From a virus (lineage: Duplodnaviria; Heunggongvirae; Uroviricota; Caudoviricetes): a stretch of 30,122 bases of DNA. Under the pieces are notes generated by a model, which was given only the letters and a program-made list of their open reading frames with translations, did no database searches and was not told the DNA's origin. Positions 1-30,122 of this stretch are shown piece after piece. Made by a program: the position numbers and the translations under genes. How positions within the stretch are numbered: the first letter of the stretch is position 1; every line of letters begins with the position of its first letter. Location of the stretch: the IMG/VR virus record IMGVR_UViG_2690316345_000022; one strand, given 5' to 3'.

Positions 1-276
1 ATGAGTATTCGTATTGAAATTGGCGAACGTTATGTCGTTACCAGTGACAGCTTCCAGTTTATTCTCCACGAGAAAAAGAGAGCGGAAAGCGGTAAAAACG
101 CCGGTCAGGAATGGCTGGCGGTGGTTGGTTATTACCCGAAATTAAGCCAGCTCGTTTCCGGCCTGATGCATCACGATATTCTGACCGGAAGCGCAAAGTC
201 TTTTGCTGATTTAAACGCGCAGGTTGAGCAACTCAGCAGGCGTTGTTCAGAGGCTTTTGGCTCATATGGCCGTTAA
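1..276 (+). CDS. Small early-operon hypothetical protein upstream of gene A (possibly 5'-truncated by window edge)
   Basis: ORF track 1..276, 91 aa; overlaps start of A as in P2 early operon (orf82/83-like position). Function unknown. Confidence 0.5.
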   Translation: MSIRIEIGERYVVTSDSFQFILHEKKRAESGKNAGQEWLAVVGYYPKLSQLVSGLMHHDILTGSAKSFADLNAQVEQLSRRCSEAFGSYGR

Positions 277-2551
277 AGCCTCCGGGCGTTTTGTCCCTCC
301 GTCAGCATTTGCTGCAGGCACCGGTAAGGCGTTTACCGGTGTTTATGCATGGAACGCGCCACGCGAGGCTGTCGGGCGCGAAAGACCCCTTACACGTGAC
401 GAGATGCGTCAGGTGCAAGGTGTTTTATCCACGATTAACCGCCTGCCTTACTTTTTGCGCTCGCTGTTTACTTCACGCTATGACTACATCCGTCGCAATA
501 AAAGCCCGGTGCACGGGTTTTATTTCCTCACATCCACTTTTCAGCGTCGTTTATGGCCGCGCATTGAGCGTGTGAATCAGCGCCATGAAATGAACACCGA
601 CGCGTCGTTACTGTTTCTGGCAGAGCGTGACCACTATGCGCGCCTGCCGGGAATGAATGACAAGGAGCTGAAAAAGTTTGCCGCCCGTATCTCATCGCAG
701 CTTTTCATGATGTATGAGGAACTCTGCGATGCATGGGTTGATGCGCATGGTGAAAAAGAATCGCTGTTTACGGATGAGGCGCAGGCTCACCTGTATGGTC
801 ATGTTGCTGGCGCTGCACGTGCTTTCAATATTTCCCCGCTCTACTGGAAAAAATACCGTAAAGGACAGATGACCACGAGGCAGGCATATTCTGCCATTGC
901 CCGCCTGTTTAACGATGAGTGGTGGACTCATCAGCTTAAAGGCCAGCGTATGCGCTGGCATGAGGCGTTACTGATTGCTGTCGGGGAGGTCAATAAAGAC
1001 CGTTCTCCTTATGCCAGTAAACATGCCATTCGTGATGTGCGTGCGCGCCGCCAGGCAAATCTGGAATTTCTTAAATCGTGTGACCTCGAAAACAGGGAAA
1101 CCGGCGAACGCATCGACCTTATCAGTAAGGTGATGGGCAGTATTTCTAATCCTGAAATTCGCCGGATGGAGCTGATGAACACCATTGCCGGTATTGAGCG
1201 TTACGCCGCCGCAGAGGGTGATGTGGGGATGTTTATCACGCTGACCGCGCCGTCAAAGTATCACCCGACACGTCAGGTCGGAAAAGGCGAAAGTAAAACC
1301 GTTCAGCTTAATCACGGCTGGAACGATGAGGCATTTAATCCAAAGGATGCGCAGCGTTATCTCTGCCGTATCTGGAGCCTGATGCGCACGGCATTCAAGG
1401 ATAATGATTTACAGGTCTACGGTTTGCGAGTCGTCGAGCCACACCACGACGGAACGCCGCACTGGCATATGATGCTTTTTTGTAATCCACGCCAGCGTAA
1501 CCAGATTATCGAAATCATGCGTCGCTACGCGCTCAAAGAGGATGGCGACGAAAGAGGAGCTGCGCGAAACCGTTTTCAGGCAAAACACCTTAACCGGGGT
1601 GGTGCTGCGGGGTATATCGCTAAATACATCTCAAAAAATATCGACGGCTATGCACTGGATGGTCAGCTCAATAACGATACCGGCAGGCCGCTTAAAGACA
1701 CTGCCGCGGCTGTTACCGCATGGGCGTCAACGTGGCGCATTCCGCAATTTAAAACGGTTGGACTGCCGACAATGGGGGCTTACCGTGAACTACGCAAATT
1801 GCCTCGCGGCGTCAGCATAGCTGATGAGTTTGACGAACGCGTCGAGGCTGCACGCGCTGCCGCAGACAGTGGCGATTTTGCGCTGTATATCAGCGCGCAG
1901 GGTGGGGCAAATGTCCCGCGCGATTGTCAGACTGTCAGGGTCGCCCGTAGCCCGTCGGATGACGTTAACGAGTACGAGGAAGAGGTCGAGAGAGTGGTCG
2001 GTATTTACGCGCCGCATCTCGGCGCGCGTCATATTCATATCACCAGAACCACGGACTGGCGCATTGTGCCGAAAGTGCCGGTCGTTGAGCCTTTGACTTT
2101 AAAAAGCGGCATCGCCGCGCCTCGGAGTCCTGTCAATAACTGTGGAAAGCTCACCGGTGGTGATACTTCGTTACCGGCTCCCACACCTTCTGAACACGCC
2201 GCAGCAGTGCTTAATCTGGTTGATGACGGTGTTATCGAATGGAATGACCCGGAGGTCGTGAGGGCGCTCAGGGGCGCATTAAAACACGACCTGAGAACAC
2301 CAAACCGTCAGCAAAGAAACGGAAGCCCGTTAAAACCACATGAAATTGCACCATCGGCCAGACTGACCCGGTCGGAACGAATGCAAATTACCCGTATCCG
2401 CGTTGACCTTGCTCAGAACGGTATCAGGCCGCAGCGATGGGAGCTTGAGGCGCTGGCGCGTGGCGCGACCGTAAATTACGACGGGAAAAAATTCACGTAT
2501 CCGGTCGCTGATGAGTGGCCGGGATTCTCAACAGTAATGGAGTGGACATGA
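266..2551 (+). CDS. A: Replication initiation protein gpA (rolling-circle nicking endonuclease)
   Basis: ORF 224..2551; internal ATG at 266 gives MAVKASGRFVPP..., 761 aa, the P2 gpA length; the longer TTG/ATG extension in the track is probably not used. Confidence 0.92.
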   Translation: MAVKASGRFVPPSAFAAGTGKAFTGVYAWNAPREAVGRERPLTRDEMRQVQGVLSTINRLPYFLRSLFTSRYDYIRRNKSPVHGFYFLTSTFQRRLWPRIERVNQRHEMNTDASLLFLAERDHYARLPGMNDKELKKFAARISSQLFMMYEELCDAWVDAHGEKESLFTDEAQAHLYGHVAGAARAFNISPLYWKKYRKGQMTTRQAYSAIARLFNDEWWTHQLKGQRMRWHEALLIAVGEVNKDRSPYASKHAIRDVRARRQANLEFLKSCDLENRETGERIDLISKVMGSISNPEIRRMELMNTIAGIERYAAAEGDVGMFITLTAPSKYHPTRQVGKGESKTVQLNHGWNDEAFNPKDAQRYLCRIWSLMRTAFKDNDLQVYGLRVVEPHHDGTPHWHMMLFCNPRQRNQIIEIMRRYALKEDGDERGAARNRFQAKHLNRGGAAGYIAKYISKNIDGYALDGQLNNDTGRPLKDTAAAVTAWASTWRIPQFKTVGLPTMGAYRELRKLPRGVSIADEFDERVEAARAAADSGDFALYISAQGGANVPRDCQTVRVARSPSDDVNEYEEEVERVVGIYAPHLGARHIHITRTTDWRIVPKVPVVEPLTLKSGIAAPRSPVNNCGKLTGGDTSLPAPTPSEHAAAVLNLVDDGVIEWNDPEVVRALRGALKHDLRTPNRQQRNGSPLKPHEIAPSARLTRSERMQITRIRVDLAQNGIRPQRWELEALARGATVNYDGKKFTYPVADEWPGFSTVMEWT

Positions 2552-3003
2552 TGGCAAAAATTCACGAGGTAAAGCTGCACGCAAAATATTTCGACCTTGT
2601 ACTGGAAGGAAAGAAACGCGCAGAGTTTCGGAAAAATGACCGTAATTATGAGCGTGGGGACACGTTGATTTTGCATGAATGGGGGCAGGGTGTGTATACG
2701 GGGCGAAAGGTTGAAGCCCGGATAACAGATGTTACTGACCTGTCAGACTGGCTGGAAGATTATGTCTTGCTAAGTATTGATCTGCTTAATACAGGCGCAT
2801 ATGAGATTGTGAACTGGAAAGAACTTAGTGAGCGTGGGCTGGTATTCAGAATTAATCATGAAATTATGCATCAGCTCGGCCTTGCTGTTATGTATGAACC
2901 AGAGACAGGGATGTCTGGCGGGGCAATGGTTGCCACGGATGGAGCATGGAACTATTCAGATGAACAGATGGAGCGTGCACAGCAAAACGGGTGGCTTGGA
3001 TAA
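2548..3003 (+). CDS. ASCH/PUA-like (DUF3850-like) domain protein
   Basis: ORF 2515..3003; likely start MMAKIHEVKLHAKYFDLVLEGKKRAEFRKNDRNYERGDTLILHEW, which resembles the ASCH/DUF3850 N-terminal signature; overlaps A stop (translational coupling). Confidence 0.6.
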   Translation: MMAKIHEVKLHAKYFDLVLEGKKRAEFRKNDRNYERGDTLILHEWGQGVYTGRKVEARITDVTDLSDWLEDYVLLSIDLLNTGAYEIVNWKELSERGLVFRINHEIMHQLGLAVMYEPETGMSGGAMVATDGAWNYSDEQMERAQQNGWLG

Positions 3004-3209
3004 TGCACAGAATACCAGGCGAGATACCGCAGCATAAAACTAAAAATATCAAGCTGATGGCTATTGTTCAGCGTTTACAGCGGATTATGGTCAACGAAAA
3101 TTTGACGCCCGATGAGCTGGTCGGGTGTGCCGAAATAGTCCGGGATAATTACGGGCGGTTTAACCATATCGGTAAGTCCAGAGTTACGCCACCACCACGC
3201 AGACGATAG
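2991..3209 (+). CDS. Hypothetical small protein
   Basis: ORF track only (72 aa); no recognisable motifs; overlaps end of preceding ORF by 13 nt. Confidence 0.3.
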   Translation: MAWIMHRIPGEIPQHKTKNIKLMAIVQRLQRIMVNENLTPDELVGCAEIVRDNYGRFNHIGKSRVTPPPRRR

Positions 3210-3259
3210 AGAACGCCGCCAGTCATGAAACTTGTTTTCAGGGCTGACGGCGTTGAACA

Positions 3260-3588
3260 ACGAGCGAAGCGAGGCGTTAGTTATGACTATGATGGATTTA
3301 TTATATAAAATACATATGGTTATGTTATTTGGGTTACTTCGGTACTTTGTAAATAATTTGGGTTAATGATGATAAGAATTAAGAATATTAGTAGCATGGT
3401 ATTGAGAGTATTATGTTGTGAACATAAAAGAGTGTATTTGCAGAAAAGCATCAGCTCACTTGGGGTAAAGTTATGCGTACATAAGGTGCAGGAGTTACAT
3501 TCGAAGCACATTCTTATCATTTGCTAAAACGCTCGAGATTTTTGGAAGATGCCGTTATACTCTATCGGAGGATAAATCGGAGACAAAA
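3260..3588. promoter_or_regulatory. Strongly AT-rich non-coding leader upstream of the methyltransferase gene; likely promoter region and left boundary of acquired cargo
   Basis: Abrupt drop in GC after 3210 (long A/T tracts such as ttatataaaatacatatggttatgttattt); GGAG-like RBS (tcggagg) about 25 nt upstream of the ATG at 3589. Confidence 0.35.
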
Positions 3589-4626
3589 ATGGCTGTAAAA
3601 GTTGTTGATCTTTTTTGTGGTGCTGGCGGTCTTACACATGGCCTAAGACAGGCCGGATTAAATGTAGTCGCTGGTATTGATATAGAGAGTGCATGCAGGG
3701 TTGCTTATGAAAGCAATAATAGTGCGCTTTTTATTGAAAAAGATATTTCTCTGGTAACCAAAGACGAGCTTGAAGGTCTATTTGAAGGGGCACAAGTTAA
3801 GGTATTGGCGGGATGTGCACCGTGCCAACCCTTTTCTAGGTATACGCAGGGGCGTGATAAGAAAAATGACAAAAAATGGCCTCTTCTTTACGAATTTGAA
3901 CGTTTAATTCGGGATGTTAATCCAGAGATTGTGACAATGGAAAATGTTCCTGATGTGACGAAGCATTCAGTTTACAGTGATTTCTATAATAGCTTAGAGT
4001 CATTAGGCTATTATGTTTGGGCAGGGACAGTTGAATGTGTAGATTATGGCATTCCACAAAATAGAGTAAGGCATGTATTATTAGCATCTAAATTTGCACC
4101 ACTTTCCTTTGTAAGACCAAAAGTACAAAAAACGGTAACGGTGAAAGAATGCATTGGTGGATTACCTCCATTAGAGGCAGGCCAGACGGATCCAGTTGAC
4201 CCTTTACATAAAGCAAGTAAATTAAGTGACATTAATCTTAAACGTATTGCTTGTTCAAAGCCTGGTGGAACGTGGCGAGATTGGCCGATAGAGTTGGTTG
4301 CGTCATGCCATATAAAGAAAAGTGGGCAAGGTTATGCCAGTGTCTATGGTCGTATGGACTGGGATAAACCAAGTCCTACCATCACCACGCTGTGTTATGG
4401 TTTTGGGAATGGCAGATTTGGCCACCCAGAGCAGAATCGTGCAATTTCTTTGAGAGAGGCAGCCCTGTTACAAACCTTTCCAAGTGATTACATTTTTACT
4501 GCACCTAATGAGAAGATCTCTGTGAAGAACGTTGGCAGGATGATCGGTAATGCCGTGCCGGTAAAATTAGGGAAGGTTATAGGTGAGTCAATTATAACCC
4601 ACCTAAAAGAGAATAATATAATTTAA
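3589..4626 (+). CDS. DNA (cytosine-5)-methyltransferase
   Basis: 345 aa with canonical C5-MTase motifs: I DLFCGAGG, IV GCAPCQPFS (catalytic Cys), VI ENVPDV, VIII QNRVR, X GNAVPVKLG. Target specificity unknown. Confidence 0.9.
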   Translation: MAVKVVDLFCGAGGLTHGLRQAGLNVVAGIDIESACRVAYESNNSALFIEKDISLVTKDELEGLFEGAQVKVLAGCAPCQPFSRYTQGRDKKNDKKWPLLYEFERLIRDVNPEIVTMENVPDVTKHSVYSDFYNSLESLGYYVWAGTVECVDYGIPQNRVRHVLLASKFAPLSFVRPKVQKTVTVKECIGGLPPLEAGQTDPVDPLHKASKLSDINLKRIACSKPGGTWRDWPIELVASCHIKKSGQGYASVYGRMDWDKPSPTITTLCYGFGNGRFGHPEQNRAISLREAALLQTFPSDYIFTAPNEKISVKNVGRMIGNAVPVKLGKVIGESIITHLKENNII

Positions 4627-5354
4627 GCCTGTAAACTTGATGATCGTATGTATAAGCGATCATCAAGATATTTTTGTATATTTTCTAGGATTTCTTCGAG
4701 GTAATAAAACACTTCATTTTTAAGAAGTTCAAGATTATCAATGGAAGTATCTTGGCCCTTGTTCAGAAAGGATTCTGAGCCATGCGCTAAAGCATTTCTG
4801 GCATTTTTTATATTTACTAAATTTCCACCATTATGAGTTTTTAAGCGATTTGTTTGAGAGGAAAATCCATATATATTAGCTACATCTCTAATTTTCTGTG
4901 CATCTACATTTCCAGAAAAAAGAGGGTTTTTATCTGCTTTGACTTGTTTTTTATGCTCCTCTAACCATTTTTTTAATACTAGTTTTGCAACATCGCCTTG
5001 TGAAAAATCCATGTCACTAACCATATGATGATCTAATTTTTTTAAGGCAAGTTTTGTTAAGCTTTCACATATCTTATCAATGCAAAGATCATTACATGAA
5101 TTGAGTTCGTCATGTATATCTTCAATAGCATTAGATATAGTGGCTTCTATTAGGTTATACAATATAATAAACGCATTTGCTTTAAGTATATGCGTCATTT
5201 CGATATCAATGTTACGAAGTTTGTACTCATCAGAATCACGATCTTTATAAGAGAATGATGGCCTCTCATCAATAATGAATTTAACAAAATCAAAATATTT
5301 TTCTATATCTTCTTTTCTTTCAGAGAATAATATTTTGCTGTTCATGGTGACCAC
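4623..5354 (-). CDS. HEPN-like domain protein (predicted nuclease), downstream partner of the DUF262 gene
   Basis: 243-aa ORF; predicted GTG start 6 nt after the DUF262 stop with GAGGAG RBS overlapping that stop; C-terminal ARNALAHG matches the HEPN Rx4-6H motif; very AT-rich. Confidence 0.6.
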   Translation of the reverse strand: MVTMNSKILFSERKEDIEKYFDFVKFIIDERPSFSYKDRDSDEYKLRNIDIEMTHILKANAFIILYNLIEATISNAIEDIHDELNSCNDLCIDKICESLTKLALKKLDHHMVSDMDFSQGDVAKLVLKKWLEEHKKQVKADKNPLFSGNVDAQKIRDVANIYGFSSQTNRLKTHNGGNLVNIKNARNALAHGSESFLNKGQDTSIDNLELLKNEVFYYLEEILENIQKYLDDRLYIRSSSLQA

Positions 5355-5360
5355 GGATAA

Positions 5361-6485
5361 TTACTCCTCACTGTCATCTTGAACAGTATCTTGAGTCTGT
5401 ACACCTAAAAGTTTATCTCTTACATATTCAATTCGTGCTTTAACTTTAGGTTTTGAGTTCGAGGCATCAGATCTAGTATGTTTAATGAACTCTACAGAGT
5501 TAAGCCATTCAGTTACTGGGGCTGGTGTTATGCTTGGATTAGTTTGTAAGGCTAAAGTTGAACCAACAGCCAGTGCTTCAAAACGTATTCTTGGTACAGT
5601 ATTTGCCGTTTCGTTTTTTCTGAAACCATAGGGGAAATTCTGTTTTACAAATCTGCACATATCTTGAAATTGTTTAGCTAATTTGTTTTCTTGTTCAGCG
5701 GAAAATGTATTATTTCTATTATCAAGATATTGAGTTAGGAATGTGTCAACACTTTTTTCAAAGTGGAGATAGTTATCACAATATGCGAAATATCTAAGAA
5801 CTAATTCAGGATATTCTCCTCGATTGATTCGAGCATCGTTTAGGGGACATATTTCTCTAAACAATGGAAGTTCAGACAGACTATTAATGAAATCCAGGAA
5901 AGGACCATCATTGCTGCCTTGTCGCTGCTCCATTGTTGTAAGTCTTATTCCGCCTGTATTTAATCTATCGAAAATCTCTCTCCTTGCTTCTTCATCACAT
6001 AATTCAGTGAGTTCAATCATTCTAATAGTTTTCCTGTCGAATCTAAGCTTACGCGCAGGTGTGAAGTCAGAGTATTTGAATCCGTTAGCTGAAGTTAGTT
6101 TTTTTAATCCAGTAAGAGTAAATTTATCATTTAGGAAATGATAAAGTGTTCTAATCCTCTGGCTGCCATCAACGATTTCCAATCGTCCATCGTCATTTCC
6201 GATATCGGCGACAAATACATATGGAATAGGAATGTTTAGTAAAAGCGATTCAATGAATCTTGATTTTTGTATATTGTTCCAAACAAACTCCCTTTGATAG
6301 TCAGGAATATATAGCTCAGCTTGATCGGTTTCTAATCCTTTCTGAAACTTGTCAACAATAACACTAACAGGAAATTCTCTGATTTGGTGATCGGTTATTT
6401 TTTGCATGGATTTGATCTGGCTATCCAGTTCAATTTTATCTTCTTCTGTGATCACTTGTTCAGGCTGTCTTGGGACTCTTGCCAT
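5361..6485 (-). CDS. DUF262 / ParB-like (GmrSD N-terminal-type) domain protein
   Basis: ORF 5361..6512; likely ATG at 6485 (MARVPRQPEQ...) preceded by AAGGAG RBS; contains IVDGSQRIRTL, a variant of the DGQQR motif of DUF262; no obvious DUF1524/HNH motif seen by eye. Confidence 0.75.
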   Translation of the reverse strand: MARVPRQPEQVITEEDKIELDSQIKSMQKITDHQIREFPVSVIVDKFQKGLETDQAELYIPDYQREFVWNNIQKSRFIESLLLNIPIPYVFVADIGNDDGRLEIVDGSQRIRTLYHFLNDKFTLTGLKKLTSANGFKYSDFTPARKLRFDRKTIRMIELTELCDEEARREIFDRLNTGGIRLTTMEQRQGSNDGPFLDFINSLSELPLFREICPLNDARINRGEYPELVLRYFAYCDNYLHFEKSVDTFLTQYLDNRNNTFSAEQENKLAKQFQDMCRFVKQNFPYGFRKNETANTVPRIRFEALAVGSTLALQTNPSITPAPVTEWLNSVEFIKHTRSDASNSKPKVKARIEYVRDKLLGVQTQDTVQDDSEE

Positions 6486-6628
6486 GTGGTTTCTCCTTAT
6501 GCTTATTTGCAATAAGTTGCATTAGTTTGCATGTGTAATTTTATACTGATTTAATCCCACAAACTCTTTACATGCAAGGGGTTGAAGCTTAAATGCAACT
6601 GCATTAAAACCGTCCCATGAAGCGGGCG

Positions 6629-17963: not shown

Positions 17964-18486
17964 TTCGCGACTGCTGCCGACCGGCTCATCACCGCTTGAA
18001 GTTGCCGCCGCAAAAGCCTGTGCGGAAATTGAAAAAACGCCGGTCAGTATTCGTGAGCTGTGGAACCCGGACACCTGTCCGGCAAATCTGCTGCCTTGGC
18101 TGGCGTGGGCGTTTTCGGTCGACAGATGGGATGAAAAGTGGCCGGAAGCGACCAAACGCGCCGTTATCCGCGATGCGTATTTCATCCACTGTCATAAAGG
18201 CACTATAGGTGCAATCCGACGCGTGGTGGAGCCGCTCGGCTATCTCATCAACGTGACGGAGTGGTGGGAAAACAGTGACCCGCCCGGCACCTTCCGGCTT
18301 GATATTGGTGTACTGGAAAGCGGTATCACAGAGGCAATGTATCAGGAAATGGAACGGCTGATTGCTGATGCCAAACCTGCAAGCCGCCACCTTATTGGCC
18401 TGAACATTACCCGGGACATTCCCGGCTACCTGTTCGCCGGTGGTGTGGCTTATGACGGCGATGTAATTACGGTTTACCCCGGATAA
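17956..18486 (+). CDS. I: Baseplate protein gpI
   Basis: 176 aa; overlaps J end; as in P2. Confidence 0.9.
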   Translation: MSDSRLLPTGSSPLEVAAAKACAEIEKTPVSIRELWNPDTCPANLLPWLAWAFSVDRWDEKWPEATKRAVIRDAYFIHCHKGTIGAIRRVVEPLGYLINVTEWWENSDPPGTFRLDIGVLESGITEAMYQEMERLIADAKPASRHLIGLNITRDIPGYLFAGGVAYDGDVITVYPG

Positions 18487-18496
18487 GTGAGGAATA

Positions 18497-20707
18497 ATGA
18501 GCACAAAATTCAGAACCGTTATCACCACTGCCGGTGCAGCAAAGCTGGCAGCGGCAACCGCACCGGGAGGGCGGAAGGTCAACATTACCACGATGGCCGT
18601 CGGGGATGGCGGTGGTAAATTGCCTGTCCCGGATGCCGGACAGACCGGGCTTATCCACGAAGTCTGGCGACATACGCTGAACAAAATCAGCCAGGACAAA
18701 CGAAACAGTAATTATATTATCGCAGAGCTGGTTATTCCGCCGGAGGTGGGCGGTTTCTGGATGCGTGAGCTTGGCCTGTACGATGATGCGGGAACATTAA
18801 TTGCCGTGGCGAACATGGCCGAAAGTTATAAGCCAGCTCTCGCCGAAGGCTCAGGGCGTTCGCAGACCTGTCGCATGGTCATCATCGTCAGCAGTGTGGC
18901 CTCAGTGGAGCTGACCATTGACACCACAACAGTGATGGCGACGCAGGATTACGTTGATGACAAAATTGCAGAGCACGAACAGTCACGACGTCACCCGGAC
19001 GCCTCGCTGACCGCCAAAGGTTTTACTCAGTTAAGCAGTGCGACCAACAGCACGTCTGAAACACTGGCCGCAACGCCGAAAGCGGTAAAGGCCGCGTATG
19101 ACCTTGCTAACGGGAAATATACTGCGCAGGATGCCACCACAGCGCGAAAAGGTCTTGTCCAGCTCAGTAGTGCCACCAACAGCACGTCTGAAACGCTCGC
19201 TGCAACACCAAAAGCGGTAAAAGCAGCATATGACCTGGCTAACGGGAAATATACCGCACAGGACGCCACCACCGCGCGAAAAGGCCTTGTCCAGCTAAGT
19301 AGCGTCACCAACAGCGATTCTGAAACGCTTGCGGCAACGCCAAAGGCGGTTAAGACAGCGTATGACCTTGCTAACGGGAAATACACTGCACAGGATGCCA
19401 CCACAGCGCGAAAAGGGCTTGTCCAGCTCAGTAGCGCCACCAACAGTGATTCTGAAACCCTCGCGGCAACGCCAAAAGCAGTGAAGTCTGCCTATGACAA
19501 TGCTGAAAAACGTCTTCAGAAAGATCAGAACGGTGCGGATATTCCGGGAAAGGATACCTTCACGAAAAATATCGGTGCCTGTCGTGCTTATAGCGGCGCT
19601 TTGAGCACTGAAGCCGGAAACTGGACAACCGCTCAGTTTATTGACTGGCTAGAGTCTCAGGGAGCCTTTAATCATCCTTACTGGATGTGCAAGTGTTCCT
19701 GGTCATATGGTAATAACAAAATTATTACCGATACTGACTGTGGGACTATTCATCTTGCAGGTTGCGTGATTGAGGTTATGGGCGTTAAAGCAGCAATGAC
19801 CATTCGTGTGACCACTCCGAGTACATCAAGCGGTGGTGGTACCACCAGTGCGCAATTCACGTATATCAATCACGGAGCTGATTATGCGCCGGGCTGGCGA
19901 CGTGACTACAATACGAAAAATAAGCAACCGGCTTTTGCATTAGGGAAAACAGGAAATACGGTTGCAAATAATAAAGCGGTAGGATGGAACTGGGACAGTG
20001 GTGCTTATTGTGCACAGGATGGCGGAGCATCAAAAATGGTGCTGCATTTTTACACGGGTGAGGGAAGTTGTCCGGCAATGCAGTTTCTTGTGGATTATAA
20101 AAACAGGGGGATTTTTTACAGGTCGGCACGTGATGGGTATGGATTTGAGGCTGACTGGTCAGAGTTTTATACCACATCACGAAAGCCAACACCTGCGGAT
20201 ATTCTTGCTCTGGCATTATCAGGCGGAAGCATGTCAGGCAGCATAAAATTTATCAATGATGCCTTCCTGATTTGGGAAAGAAACACTGACTGGGCGAAAA
20301 TTGGATTTAAAAATGATTCAGATGCTGATTCTGACTCATACATGTGGTTTGAAACTGGTGATAATGGCAATGAATATTTTAAATGGCGCATCAGGTCTGG
20401 CAGCACAACAAAAGACCTGATGACGCTTAAGTCTGATGCACTTCGGGTTACCGGGCAGGTGATACCATCAAATTTCAGCAATTTTGACTCCCGCTATGTC
20501 CGGGATATCCGGCTTGGTGGTGCCGCCACATACAAACCTGCGAACAATGGCATGACATGGACACATCAGGCACCGTCCGGGTGTGTATATACCGGCATTA
20601 TTGTTCAGGATACCGGCTCAAACTCTGCCGATAACATTGGTGGCGTATATTACAGACCGGTTCAGAAATACATTAACGGGACGTGGTACAACGTGGCGCA
20701 GGTATAA
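18497..20707 (+). CDS. H: Tail fibre protein gpH (repeat-expanded, divergent C-terminal receptor-binding region)
   Basis: 736 aa; conserved N-terminal region, internal tandem repeats, divergent C-terminal half. Confidence 0.9.
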   Translation: MSTKFRTVITTAGAAKLAAATAPGGRKVNITTMAVGDGGGKLPVPDAGQTGLIHEVWRHTLNKISQDKRNSNYIIAELVIPPEVGGFWMRELGLYDDAGTLIAVANMAESYKPALAEGSGRSQTCRMVIIVSSVASVELTIDTTTVMATQDYVDDKIAEHEQSRRHPDASLTAKGFTQLSSATNSTSETLAATPKAVKAAYDLANGKYTAQDATTARKGLVQLSSATNSTSETLAATPKAVKAAYDLANGKYTAQDATTARKGLVQLSSVTNSDSETLAATPKAVKTAYDLANGKYTAQDATTARKGLVQLSSATNSDSETLAATPKAVKSAYDNAEKRLQKDQNGADIPGKDTFTKNIGACRAYSGALSTEAGNWTTAQFIDWLESQGAFNHPYWMCKCSWSYGNNKIITDTDCGTIHLAGCVIEVMGVKAAMTIRVTTPSTSSGGGTTSAQFTYINHGADYAPGWRRDYNTKNKQPAFALGKTGNTVANNKAVGWNWDSGAYCAQDGGASKMVLHFYTGEGSCPAMQFLVDYKNRGIFYRSARDGYGFEADWSEFYTTSRKPTPADILALALSGGSMSGSIKFINDAFLIWERNTDWAKIGFKNDSDADSDSYMWFETGDNGNEYFKWRIRSGSTTKDLMTLKSDALRVTGQVIPSNFSNFDSRYVRDIRLGGAATYKPANNGMTWTHQAPSGCVYTGIIVQDTGSNSADNIGGVYYRPVQKYINGTWYNVAQV
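19013..19500 (+). repeat. Tandem 132-bp (44-codon) coding repeats inside tail-fibre gene H, about 3.7 copies
   Basis: Protein repeat ARKGLVQLSS(A/V)TNS(T/D)SETLAATPKAVK(A/T/S)AYDLANGKYTAQDATT recurs with period 132 nt (e.g. gcgcgaaaagg at about 19145, 19277 and 19409). Confidence 0.85.
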
Positions 20708-20710
20708 TTT

Positions 20711-21238
20711 ATGCAGCATTTGATAAATATAACGGCAGGTAATCCAAAAACGGTTGAACAATATCAATTGACAAAGGACTTTGATGTTGTCTGGTTTTTT
20801 TCAGAAGATGGTAAGAACTGGTACGAAGAACAAAAGTATTTTGCTGATGACACGATAAAAATAGCGTACGACAAAGATAATATTATCCGCTATGTGGAAA
20901 AGGATGTGACAGCTATCAGACCAGATGGATTAAGTGTTGTTGAAGTGCCGGATATTACTGCTAATCGACGGGCGGACATTTCAGGGAACTGGATGTTTAA
21001 GGATGGTACAGTGATTAAACGAATTTATACGGCAGAGGAATTGCAGCAGCAGGCAGAAAATCGGAAAGCCAGACTTCTTGCAGATGCTGAATCCGTGATT
21101 TTGCCGCTGGAGCGCGCGGTCAGACTGAACATGGCAACAGATGAGGAGCGTAGCCGACTGGAAGCATGGGAACGCTACAGCGTTCTGGTCAGTCGTGTGG
21201 ATCCTGCAAATCCTGAATGGCCGGAAATGCCGCAATAA
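20711..21238 (+). CDS. G: Tail fibre assembly chaperone gpG
   Basis: 175 aa directly after H; position as P2 gpG. Confidence 0.85.
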
Positions 21239-21459
21239 GTTGTATGATCTCTGGAGTGAGCAAACGTATCTATGGCACAGAGTAAAGCCTAATCTGACAG
21301 GCCGCTCTGTGTCTGGAGTAGATTTTAGTAAAGCATTATTTTATTAGTGCAAATTCTAATCAATACATTTTATGTATATGATATCCTGCAGACTTTAATG
21401 ACTTGGTTTAGGCTAACCAGATAACACTGAAGGAATATTTTTGATAATTAAGGTACGGT

Positions 21460-22053
21460 ATGTTTACTAAGCGACGATTAAAAAATATTAACTGGGAGGC
21501 AAGTTCAGTGATTCTTGCTATGGTTCTCTTTGTTGGAAATATATTTTATACAAATCATCGTGATGATATAAGCATGGAGGCTGAGAGGGACAGTATCAGA
21601 ACAATGTTTGCATATGAAATCGCTAATAACCATCGCGCTCTCACTTTTCTTGATAAAACGAGACATATTGGCTTTGACGAAAATTCGGAGCATTTTGTTG
21701 GCGAGCCTTTTGCCATTAATGTCAAATCATTAGGGGGGCCTCGCTTACAGATTGCATTAAACCAGACTGATAAAGTGTTTAAATCCTACTTCAGCGAATT
21801 AAGTAAGCTTGATAAAGAGGATGTTACTCTTCTTATGGACTATTACCATGAGCAAAGCATCCTGCTGGAGCGTGTAAAATCTACGTTACAGAAGATGAAA
21901 AGTGGTAATGATATTAAAGTTGATATTGATGGTTACTTATTAGAAGAACACTTCATGAATGAGCTTAATCTTTCTAATATTTTGCTTAAACGCTATAGCC
22001 ATTTGTTGTCACAATACGCTAAAGAACATAAAACAAAAGATTTACATAATTGA
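21460..22053 (+). CDS. Hypothetical membrane-anchored protein in the G-FI accessory slot (P2 Z/fun position)
   Basis: 197-aa ORF in an AT-rich island; N-terminus MFTKRRLKNINWEASSVILAMVLFVGNIFY is a basic stretch followed by a hydrophobic helix; AAGG RBS upstream; no recognisable catalytic motifs. Confidence 0.6.
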   Translation: MFTKRRLKNINWEASSVILAMVLFVGNIFYTNHRDDISMEAERDSIRTMFAYEIANNHRALTFLDKTRHIGFDENSEHFVGEPFAINVKSLGGPRLQIALNQTDKVFKSYFSELSKLDKEDVTLLMDYYHEQSILLERVKSTLQKMKSGNDIKVDIDGYLLEEHFMNELNLSNILLKRYSHLLSQYAKEHKTKDLHN

Positions 22054-22382
22054 TAATCTGCTAATGGTTATTCATGGGGTAACTATGTTTTATATGTAAT
22101 CCAACTCAGATGAATTATTGATTCTGGATAATAACCGCAGAGCGGCATATACCCTGACAGGCAAATGTCCGCTTCTTGTTCAAAGCAGACTGTCAGATTT
22201 GATAACTTTTGGGCTATGTAAATTGTCAGTCGGAAAATGAGTGAGTTCAAATCAGGACTGGCGGGCGAATTGCCCGCATTTTCTTTATCTGTTGTTTCAT
22301 CCACTGACCAACCAGGTCAAATAGCGTCTCATGCACTGCCCAACAGAAAATAGTTGCACCCATTAACCACGGAGTTAAACGG

Positions 22383-29138: not shown

Positions 29139-29219
29139 ATCCTCAATTTGCCTGCTGCTTAATGCATTGCAGATGATTTGCTTCCGTTATACTAGCGTCA
29201 GTTGATAGCGGGAGTATTT

Positions 29220-30122
29220 ATGAATCAATCTTATGGACGGCTGGTCAGTCGGGCGGCGATTGCTGCGACGGCGATGGCTTCGCTGCTATTGCTGATTAAA
29301 ATTTTTGCATGGTGGTATACCGGGTCGGTGAGTATTCTCGCCGCGCTGGTGGATTCGCTGGTGGATATCGGCGCGTCGTTGACGAATTTATTGGTGGTGC
29401 GATATTCCCTGCAACCTGCCGACGATAATCACTCGTTTGGTCACGGTAAAGCTGAGTCCCTCGCGGCGCTGGCGCAAAGTATGTTTATCTCCGGTTCGGC
29501 ACTATTCCTGTTTTTGACGGGTATTCAACATCTGATATCTCCAACACCGATGACAGATCCAGGCGTCGGGGTTATCGTGACAATTGTGGCGCTAATTTGT
29601 ACGATTATCCTTGTCTCGTTTCAGCGTTGGGTGGTGCGGCGGACGCAAAGCCAGGCGGTGCGGGCTGATATGCTACATTACCAGTCTGATGTTATGATGA
29701 ACGGCGCAATTCTGCTGGCGCTGGGGTTGTCCTGGTACGGCTGGCATCGCGCCGATGCTCTGTTTGCATTGGGAATCGGCATCTATATTTTATATAGCGC
29801 GTTACGCATGGGATATGAGGCGGTACAGTCATTACTGGATCGCGCATTGCCTGATGAGGAACGGCAAGAAATTATTGATATCGTGACTTCCTGGCCGGGT
29901 GTTAGCGGCGCTCACGATCTTCGCACGCGGCAGTCAGGGCCGACCCGCTTTATTCAGATTCATTTGGAAATGGAAGACTCTCTGCCTTTGGTTCAGGCAC
30001 ATATGGTGGCGGATCAGGTAGAGCAGGCTATTTTACGGCGTTTTCCGGGATCGGATGTAATTATCCATCAGGACCCCTGTTCCGTCGTACCCAGGGAGGG
30101 TAAACGGTCTATGCTTTCATAA
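29220..30122 (+). CDS. fieF: Cation diffusion facilitator family ferrous-iron/zinc efflux transporter FieF (YiiP), host chromosomal gene
   Basis: ORF 29202..30122; ATG at 29220 gives 300 aa [53 protein letters not shown]..., matching E. coli FieF from memory; six TM helices plus C-terminal cytoplasmic domain. Confidence 0.93.

Follow-up and report, generated by a model that had tools for sequence, protein, structure and literature searches.

The Phage_fiber_2 (Pf2) repeat, collected in Pfam family PF03406, was first recognised in the stf gene of phage lambda and is a module of trimeric fibres (PMC3368898). Lambda Stf, stfR and the collagen-like fibres of EHEC prophages belong to the same family as the tail fibre H analysed here. 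Stf-type proteins, however, serve siphoviruses as side tail fibres and have different N-terminal domains (PF08400), and their units are often single or mixed with collagen or coiled-coil segments, whereas those of H stand in tandem. The fibres S (G+) and S' (G-) of phage Mu (PDB entries 5yvq, 9ki1 and 8ju3) have one Pf2 unit, and their variable part lies on the invertible G segment (PMC11915804). Two units, one full and one truncated, are present in gpH of phage P2 (AF063097, AAD03286; 669 aa), and engineering of the P2 fibre has been described (PMC9594776). The repeats as such are already known: they make up a curated Pfam family, and the four-unit allele described below is found as a tail fibre in public phage and E. 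coli records. Among the papers covered by a literature search on copy-number variation of the gpH repeats, none describes it; those on the family are PMC3368898 and PMC8078820.

The stretch of DNA analysed here, called the window, comprises 30,122 nucleotides of a tailed phage (Caudoviricetes; IMG/VR record IMGVR_UViG_2690316345_000022), and its features around gene H are collected in the table below. H encodes 736 residues, and the length of about 669 residues that the first-pass annotation gave for P2 gpH is correct as well. Pfam searches match H to PF12571 over the full profile (E 3.1e-58), PF03406, PF12604 and PF21446, and its top PHROG is phrog_381, tail fiber protein (E 8e-261). The gene order J-I-H-G is that of P2 and fiAA91-ss, with the assembly gene immediately downstream of H. 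The N-terminal segment of H is matched in 1324 of 5426 complete E. coli genomes. Judged by its sequence, H is a P2-type tail fibre, and it is predicted to form a receptor-binding trimer on the baseplate. The open reading frame that follows G (21460-22053) has no Pfam match, and no non-coding RNA came up anywhere in the window in Rfam or tRNA scans.

Table. Coordinates of gene H, its parts and its neighbours in the window.
Feature	Coordinates	Strand	Residues and remarks
Baseplate gene I, 176 aa	17956..18486	+	PF09684 Tail_P2_I, E 6e-56; directly upstream of H
Tail-fibre gene H, 736 aa, of a P2-like prophage	18497..20707	+	Pfam, PHROG, synteny
N-terminal baseplate-attachment (collar) domain, conserved	18497..19015	+	aa 1-173; PF12571 Phage_tail_fib at aa 1-151
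Repeat unit 1 (KGFTQLSS...DATTAR)	19016..19147	+	aa 174-217
Repeat unit 2	19148..19279	+	aa 218-261; 95% to OU784750 unit 2; no fiAA91-ss counterpart
Repeat unit 3	19280..19411	+	aa 262-305; 100% to fiAA91-ss unit 2; 95% to OU784750 unit 3
Repeat unit 4, truncated, about 30 codons	19412..19501	+	aa 306-335; its end is the junction with the distal module
Antisense shadow ORF, 138 aa, TTG start	19027..19443	-	judged not to be a gene; no internal Met
Distal receptor-binding region like Mu G(-) fibre S'	19496..20209	+	aa 334-571; phmmer against PDB
C-terminal part common to Mu S / P2 H type fibres	20210..20707	+	aa 572-736
Tail-fibre assembly gene G, 175 aa	20711..21238	+	PF02413 Caudo_TAP, E 1e-34; same position as G in P2 and fiAA91-ss

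A 132-bp (44-codon) tandem array of about 3.7 units, three full and one truncated, occupies 19016-19501 in frame with H. This agrees with the first-pass annotation, which had placed about 3.7 in-frame units at 19013-19500; in a sliding comparison the periodicity extends over about 19010-19500. Self-comparison of 19016-19501 gives identities of 0.845, 0.815 and 0.722 at lags of 132, 264 and 396, respectively, while the remaining lags give a mean of 0.26 +/- 0.035 and a maximum of 0.34. Tandem Repeats Finder reports a single array at 19043-19498 (period 132, 3.5 copies, 86% matches, 0% indels, score 653), and a repeat search finds three 219-nt copies at 132-nt spacing, the first starting at 19016. 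The units had also been described as near-identical. This is true of the protein (89-100% identity), where the three full units differ pairwise in 2-5 of 44 residues, but not of the DNA, where they are only 83-85% identical. At this level 20-23 of 132 nt differ, mostly at third codon positions, and the exact runs common to unit pairs are 14-26 nt long, with 26 nt as the longest.

The PF03406 profile matches H in four stretches with 264.6 bits against a gathering threshold of 22 (E 1.9e-80); the best stretch, aa 170-210, covers profile positions 1-41 of 42. Successive units are exactly 44 residues apart in the window, and likewise in all of the best 120 homologues. The array very probably represents four tandem Phage_fiber_2 units in the proximal shaft of a trimeric P2-type fibre. 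A PDB search with the array alone returned only chains of Mu S and S', each of which has a single unit, and a PBP5 match at E > 0.3, which is noise. An AlphaFold2 monomer model of aa 151-386, built from an 18-sequence alignment, is of unusable quality, with a mean pLDDT of 49.6 and a pTM of 0.29.

A comparison with related phages shows that the H gene of OU784750.1 / NC_070905.1 ('Peduovirus P2', 736 aa) carries effectively the same allele. It matches the window with 98.1% DNA identity over all 2211 nt in a single collinear piece, with the same four units, junction and distal module. Only point differences are found, for example a Val/Ala substitution in unit 4, not unit 3. P2 gpH has the same N-terminal domain, and its unit 1 is identical to that of the window as protein and 97% identical as DNA. 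The P2 DNA is 94% identical over the first 860 nt, and the similarity stops at query position 860. The P2 junction reads ...TPKAVKTVMDETNKKAP and is followed by a distal module unlike that of the window, the middle parts of the two being unrelated. The 67-residue excess of H over P2 gpH is accounted for by two extra units (+88 aa) and a distal module that is 21 aa shorter. H of fiAA91-ss (KF322032, 692 aa) shares the distal module of the window and is 97% identical. Its second unit equals unit 3 of the window and a counterpart of unit 2 is missing, an exact in-register difference of 132 bp. For the hybrid unit that an unequal crossover would leave in fiAA91-ss, only one diagnostic site is present, and we claim no mapped crossover. 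Four sites separate unit 1 of fiAA91-ss from unit 1 of the window; three of them are common to P2 unit 1 and two to OU784750 unit 1.

The final unit ends right after a TPKAVK motif in every relative examined, and there the differing distal sequences begin. At least five mutually unrelated distal types follow the truncated unit. The junction ...AVKxAxDNAxxRLxKDxNGADIP is also present in Mu S and S'. The distal region of H resembles the S' fibre: a phmmer search against PDB matches 8ju3_A (Tail fiber protein S / S' chimera) with a whole-sequence E of 6e-140, and H aa 334-571 align with chain residues 177-416 at 399 bits, almost residue for residue with the S' part. The C-terminal part corresponds to Mu S, with PDB entry 5yvq_A matching H aa 572-656 and aa 652-735 (E 9e-65). 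Pfam Gp34_trimer scores 25.5 bits on aa 599-654, below its cut-off of 27. GC is 0.55 in the N-terminal part of the gene and drops to 0.44-0.45 in the distal region. The breakpoints of mosaic similarity to other phages lie in or just past the array, at query positions 860 and 1049. Mu fibres differ from H in the N-terminal baseplate-binding part and in having a single unit instead of four. An invertible fibre segment of the Mu type was considered and, judged by repeats, open reading frames and Pfam matches, rejected, as neither flanking inverted repeats nor an alternative cassette accompany H, and nothing like the invertible G segment of Mu is seen around it. A repeat search of 18400-20800 gives a single inverted repeat, two 23-nt arms of 78% complementarity, and the list of open reading frames contains no second fibre or assembly gene on the opposite strand.

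The divergence between the units is informative about the age of the array. Between units of the window dS is 0.71-0.85 and dN is 0.04-0.08. The N-terminal domain, compared with its P2, OU784750 and fiAA91-ss orthologues, gives a dS of 0.03-0.09, so the dS between units is about 10x that between orthologous alleles. With a dN/dS of about 0.05-0.1 in every unit, the repeat units are under strong purifying selection. In DNA, unit 1 of the window matches the first units of OU784750, fiAA91-ss and P2 at 95-97% but units 2 and 3 of its own array at only 83-84%. In general a unit is 95-100% identical to its positional equivalent in other phages, whereas paralogous units are 81-89% identical to each other. 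By these sequence comparisons the four units are old paralogues; the orthologue of each is the correspondingly placed unit of related phages. The array is considered old and selected, and not recently expanded, because its units are only 83-85% identical in DNA, are separated by a dS of 0.7-0.85 and are closer to their positional counterparts than to their neighbours.

Unit number does vary among relatives, in exact steps of 132 bp (44 aa) and from 1 to 6, in line with the earlier suggestion that such repeats expand and contract. P2 has two units, fiAA91-ss three and the window four; other E. coli alleles have five or six, and some have one. Among the best 120 protein clusters, which were ranked by score and are thus biased toward more units, 34 have 3 units, 68 have 4, 13 have 5 and 5 have 6. 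Twenty-two species-level loci have 1-4 units, and 10 systematically sampled complete E. coli genomes have 4, 1, 5, 5, 4, 2, 1, 5, 3 and 1. Within the distal type of the window, 3 units (22), 4 (54), 5 (2) and 6 (5) are found. The modal number is 4 for this type, 5 for the type with the ...IPDKRL junction and 1-2 for the P2 reference type. Young duplicates also exist: units 2 and 3 of one relative are 98% identical, and units 3 and 4 of another 95-96%; NZ_CP040269.1 is a record whose allele has 98% identical neighbours. The four-unit allele of the window recurs in NZ_AP042510.1 with a 99.9% match. An 851-nt query that spans the array is at least 80% covered in 346 complete E. coli genomes, and its top sampled matches are single collinear pieces of equal length. 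Genomes with any match have it at a median of 2 places and at up to 13; in stfR-type prophage fibre genes the repeat DNA is about 85% identical.

Several other explanations for the copy number and the role of the array have to be weighed. Tandem repeats are a classic source of assembly error and many public H homologues are labelled 'partial', but an expanded or collapsed repeat is scarcely credible here, because differences at 20-23 of 132 nt and exact runs of at most 26 nt ensure that ordinary reads and k-mers can tell each unit from the others. The independent records OU784750.1, NZ_AP042510.1, NZ_CP027366.1 and NZ_CP173249.1 also have these four units in unchanged order, at 95-100% identity per unit. 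Moreover, 118 of the best 120 homologues, many of them partial, reach at least 45 residues beyond the array, which shows that the distal part, and not the repeat, is where contigs break. It is also very unlikely that the array is a fast contingency locus, in which frequent RecA- or slippage-mediated gain and loss of units would yield mixed fibre lengths. Close relatives do differ by exact 132-bp steps, and the 95-98% identical neighbouring units of some alleles would fit such a locus. The units of the window, however, do not have near-identical DNA, and their exact runs of 14-26 nt are no longer than the tract that efficient RecA recombination usually requires. The tenfold excess of dS between units over that between orthologous alleles stands against frequent exchange, as does the positional identity of the units, whose preservation across phages means that unit changes are rare on the timescale of allele divergence. 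A diverged array of this kind is a poor substrate for frequent recombination. The array of the window is a stable four-unit allele, neither a hypervariable locus nor an assembly artefact.

Another reading takes the repeats mainly as conserved DNA linkers for the exchange of distal modules, with unit number as a neutral by-product. The truncation after TPKAVK in all relatives, followed by at least five unrelated distal types, speaks for it, as do the unit and junction common to Mu S and S', the roughly 85% identical repeat DNA of lambdoid stf-type genes in the same genomes, the fall in GC past the array and the mosaic breakpoints at or near it. We regard it as possible but rather unlikely to be the main role, since the low dN/dS of each unit indicates selection on the protein and not on the DNA alone; a linker would also need no more than one unit, but arrays of several units are common and old. 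A linker role is compatible with the explanation as a Pf2 shaft and does not exclude it. Unit number might, on the other hand, be an adaptive 'reach' setting, selected to fit the thickness of host O-antigen or capsule for each distal module. The synonymous divergence between units would then be kept because it guards the favoured length against recombinational loss. We consider such a setting doubtful, and shared ancestry explains the differences in modal number between distal types equally well.

On the opposite strand, the array contains the open reading frame that the first-pass annotation had dismissed as an artefact. The frame exists as described and behaves as a shadow of H, with stops in relatives and without an ATG. 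In the window it comprises 154 stop-free codons inside the array, while the same frame has 2-4 stops inside the array in six relatives, and in many relatives another antisense frame is open instead. From the coordinates, its third codon positions fall on those of H, and an antisense stop requires a Tyr, Gln or His codon of H with T or C as the last letter of the codon before it. That the frame encodes a genuine repeat protein of 138 aa finds next to no credence on this evidence, despite the 138-codon stop-free run and weak matches, all to PHROGs of unknown function, among them phrog_26766 (E 7e-23) and phrog_24241 (E 8e-11). Besides the stops in relatives and the missing ATG, the sole Shine-Dalgarno-like GAGGG sits 14 nt before the TTG, and the PHROG matches are most simply explained as miscalled open reading frames on the same conserved repeat DNA. 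Elsewhere, antisense frames on the Pf2 repeat have probably been annotated as genes and entered PHROG families of unknown function.

For the array as a Pf2 shaft, the following mechanism can be proposed. The Pf2 units sit between the N-terminal domain that docks to the baseplate and a horizontally exchanged distal module of the Mu S' type. Units would be gained or lost by unequal homologous recombination between units, within one phage or between co-resident prophages with the same repeat. Each unit would add a fixed increment to the length of the shaft, and a link between unit number and fibre length is plausible. The conserved repeat DNA could double as the crossover site for swaps of distal modules.

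The feature is real but ordinary, and its value as a discovery is small. The 736-residue H is a genuine protein and not a misassembly. In P2-type fibres the Pf2 count ranges from 1 to 6, independent of the receptor-binding module. A natural fusion point is offered by the truncated last unit, which may aid the engineering of chimeric P2 or tailocin fibres.

The tandem units in H are assigned by Pfam to PF03406 (Phage_fiber_2, 'phage tail fibre repeat'), in four stretches with 264.6 bits at a cut-off of 22 bits. The same H protein carries an N-terminal PF12571 domain (Phage_tail_fib) at aa 1-151, and weaker matches to gp37_C and Gp34_trimer are found in its distal half. H is flanked by a Tail_P2_I gene upstream and a Caudo_TAP tail-fibre assembly gene downstream, matching P2 with its J-I-H-G order. 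The remainder of the window is likewise a P2-like prophage, with a gpA replication protein and, at the right end, a host cation-efflux gene. Knowledge of this repeat family goes back to lambda stf; it is called the 'Pf2' module of prophage fibres, and its structure is little known (PMC3368898). This tail-fibre repeat is a textbook case that has already been catalogued, and the allele is already in public records.

Within 18000-21000, Tandem Repeats Finder detects one array only, at 19043-19498 (period 132, 3.5 copies, 86% matches, no indels, score 653). A repeat search finds three 219-nt copies in register, starting at 19016, 19148 and 19280. When 19016-19501 is compared with itself, identity reaches 0.845 (lag 132), 0.815 (lag 264) and 0.722 (lag 396), against a mean of 0.26 +/- 0.035 at the remaining lags; in a sliding comparison, the periodicity spans ~19010-19500. 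The array is read in the frame of H. Its three full units and a fourth of ~30 residues make up the 3.7 units claimed in the first-pass annotation, whose observation is confirmed and whose overall interpretation is essentially right.

Features of the H gene, its repeat units and other parts of the window
Feature	Position	Strand	Remarks
gpA replication protein	224-2551		
C-5 cytosine DNA methylase	3589-4626	+	PF00145; PADLOC DrmMII/MTase_II
HEPN protein	4623-5354	-	PF18737
GmrSD_N/DUF262 protein	5361-6512	-	PADLOC NsnA E 4e-55, PD-T4-2_A E 2e-34
H	18497..20707	+	736 aa
Unit 1	aa 174-217	+	full
Unit 2	aa 218-261	+	full
Unit 3	aa 262-305	+	full
Unit 4	aa 306-335	+	~30 residues match, then diverges
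Antisense ORF	19027..19443	-	genuine open frame
ORF	21460-22053	+	197 aa
Cation-efflux family gene	29202-30122	+	PF01545 + ZT_dimer; reaches window end

An assembly artefact as the source of the copy number is very unlikely, since the units are distinguishable and the same four units occur elsewhere. The phage record OU784750.1 / NC_070905.1 has them in the same order in one collinear 2211-nt piece of 98.1% identity, E. coli NZ_AP042510.1 matches at 99.9%, and NZ_CP027366.1 and NZ_CP173249.1 also carry the four ordered units. An 851-nt query of the array with both flanks is covered to at least 80% in 346 complete E. coli genomes. Many homologous H proteins are partial and come from draft assemblies; 118 of 120 homologues listed run well beyond the array, so that contig breaks fall in the distal region and not in the repeat.

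The units had been described as near-identical. This holds for the protein, where the full units differ pairwise at 2-5 of 44 positions, but not for the DNA, which is 83-85% identical, with 15-17 of the 20-23 differences at third codon positions and a longest exact run common to any two units of 26 nt. Between units dS is 0.71-0.85 and dN 0.04-0.08 (Nei-Gojobori); dS in the adjacent N-terminal domain is 0.03-0.09 against P2, OU784750 and fiAA91-ss. Each unit is 95-100% identical to the same-position unit in other phages versus 81-89% to its neighbours in the window, so the duplications are older than the divergence of these alleles. The units are under strong purifying selection without homogenisation, and the window's array bears the marks of no recent event.

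Copy number in relatives varies from 1 to 6 in whole 44-residue steps. P2 (AF063097) has two units, fiAA91-ss (H of 692 aa) has three and lacks exactly the counterpart of the window's unit 2, and OU784750 has four, as in the window. The best 120 protein clusters, ranked by score and hence biased to more units, contain 3 (34), 4 (68), 5 (13) or 6 (5) units, with a spacing of always 44 residues. From 1 to 4 units are found in 22 loci of one-genome-per-species data, whose genera include Escherichia, Citrobacter, Salmonella, Scandinavium and Buttiauxella. Ten complete E. coli genomes, sampled systematically, have 4, 1, 5, 5, 4, 2, 1, 5, 3 and 1 units. The window's distal type alone has 3 (22), 4 (54), 5 (2) or 6 (5) units, the P2 reference type 1-3 and the 'NANGRVP' type 1-6. 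Young duplicates are seen in NZ_CP040269.1 (units 2 and 3, 98% identical) and in another related H locus, L028 (units 3 and 4, 95-96%). This variation within one distal type, together with the young duplicates, makes whole-unit gain and loss real on an evolutionary scale. Enterobacterial P2-type H genes are also carried by records with a Firmicute label (NZ_JBQPOM010000032.1, 'Vagococcus sp. WN89Y') and a Bacteroidete label (CACSKA010000005.1, 'Chryseobacterium sp. 18061'). Their N-terminal domains share 74-79% protein identity with that of the window, and the contigs are 180-420 kb long; contamination or mislabelling of the assemblies seems a likelier explanation than true host jumps.

H is longer than P2 gpH (669 aa in AF063097), as had been noted. 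The two units beyond P2's number contribute 88 aa; past the array, H has 400 aa and P2 gpH 421 aa, and the net difference is +67 aa. The distal half of H (19496-20707) combines sequence of the Mu G(-) fibre S' with that of Mu S, and its middle does not resemble P2. Within it, aa 334-571 align almost residue for residue with the S' portion of 8ju3, a Mu S/S' chimera (whole-sequence E 6e-140), and aa 572-735 align with Mu S (5yvq); a receptor specificity other than that of reference P2 is suggested. GC falls across the distal part from 0.55 to 0.44-0.45. DNA similarity to other P2-like phages stops variously, at query positions 860, 1049, 1411 and 1680, and H is a mosaic of the kind usual for fibre genes. 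The last unit ends directly behind the motif TPKAVK in all relatives examined and is succeeded by unrelated distal sequences. Both the unit and this junction are also present in Mu S and S', and lambdoid stfR-type fibre genes hold repeat DNA of ~85% identity. Genomes with any repeat match have it at a median of 2 places (maximum 13). In two more distant P2-like prophages (E. coli EC958, NZ_HG941718.1, and NZ_CP077479.1), a second tail-fibre assembly gene lies directly after G on the opposite strand (locus 4261-5299). Such an arrangement resembles that of alternative or invertible fibre cassettes; nothing comparable is found in the window.

The antisense ORF, earlier called an artefact, is likewise judged a shadow of H. 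Its third codon positions are those of H. A stop in this frame requires a Tyr, Gln or His codon of H preceded by a codon that ends in T or C. There is no ATG in the ORF, and its TTG start lacks a well-spaced ribosome-binding site in front of it. In relatives the same frame is broken by 2-4 stops within the array, and in many another antisense frame is open. It does match phrog_26766, phrog_24241 and phrog_10142 (all of unknown function, E down to 7e-23); the simplest reading is that antisense ORFs of this spurious kind, lying on Pf2 repeat DNA, were annotated as genes in other phages and then clustered into families.

Two low-GC islands are also observed. The one at 3000-6600, between gpA and the portal gene (0.30-0.41 versus ~0.55-0.59 for the prophage), encodes the methylase, HEPN and GmrSD_N proteins and looks like anti-phage cargo in the known P2 old/tin variable hotspot. 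The other, at 21000-22200 with a GC of 0.36, separates G from the sheath gene and holds the 197-aa ORF, which has no match in Pfam or PADLOC and a full-length match to phrog_3829 (unknown function, E 7e-137). P2 has fun(Z) at this ORF's position; the island site has orf20 on the opposite strand in fiAA91-ss, two small minus-strand genes in OU784750 and a Shedu nuclease in E. coli 1579. The cation-efflux gene probably marks host chromosome, so that the right prophage boundary should be at ~28.7-29.2 kb. No tRNA genes are found in the window.

The PDB contains no multi-unit Pf2 structure, only the N-terminus was modelled in the Mu virion fibre (PMC11915804), and our AlphaFold2 monomer model is of low confidence (pLDDT 49.6). 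The present analysis excludes an artefact, splits the length difference from P2 in two and documents the polymorphism of 1-6 units. The array consists of conserved, selected protein modules which lie between the baseplate-attachment domain and an exchangeable receptor-binding module, and their number is polymorphic in whole units. Units would be gained and lost via unequal homologous recombination, each adding a fixed increment of shaft length, and the repeat may also supply homology for exchange of the distal module.
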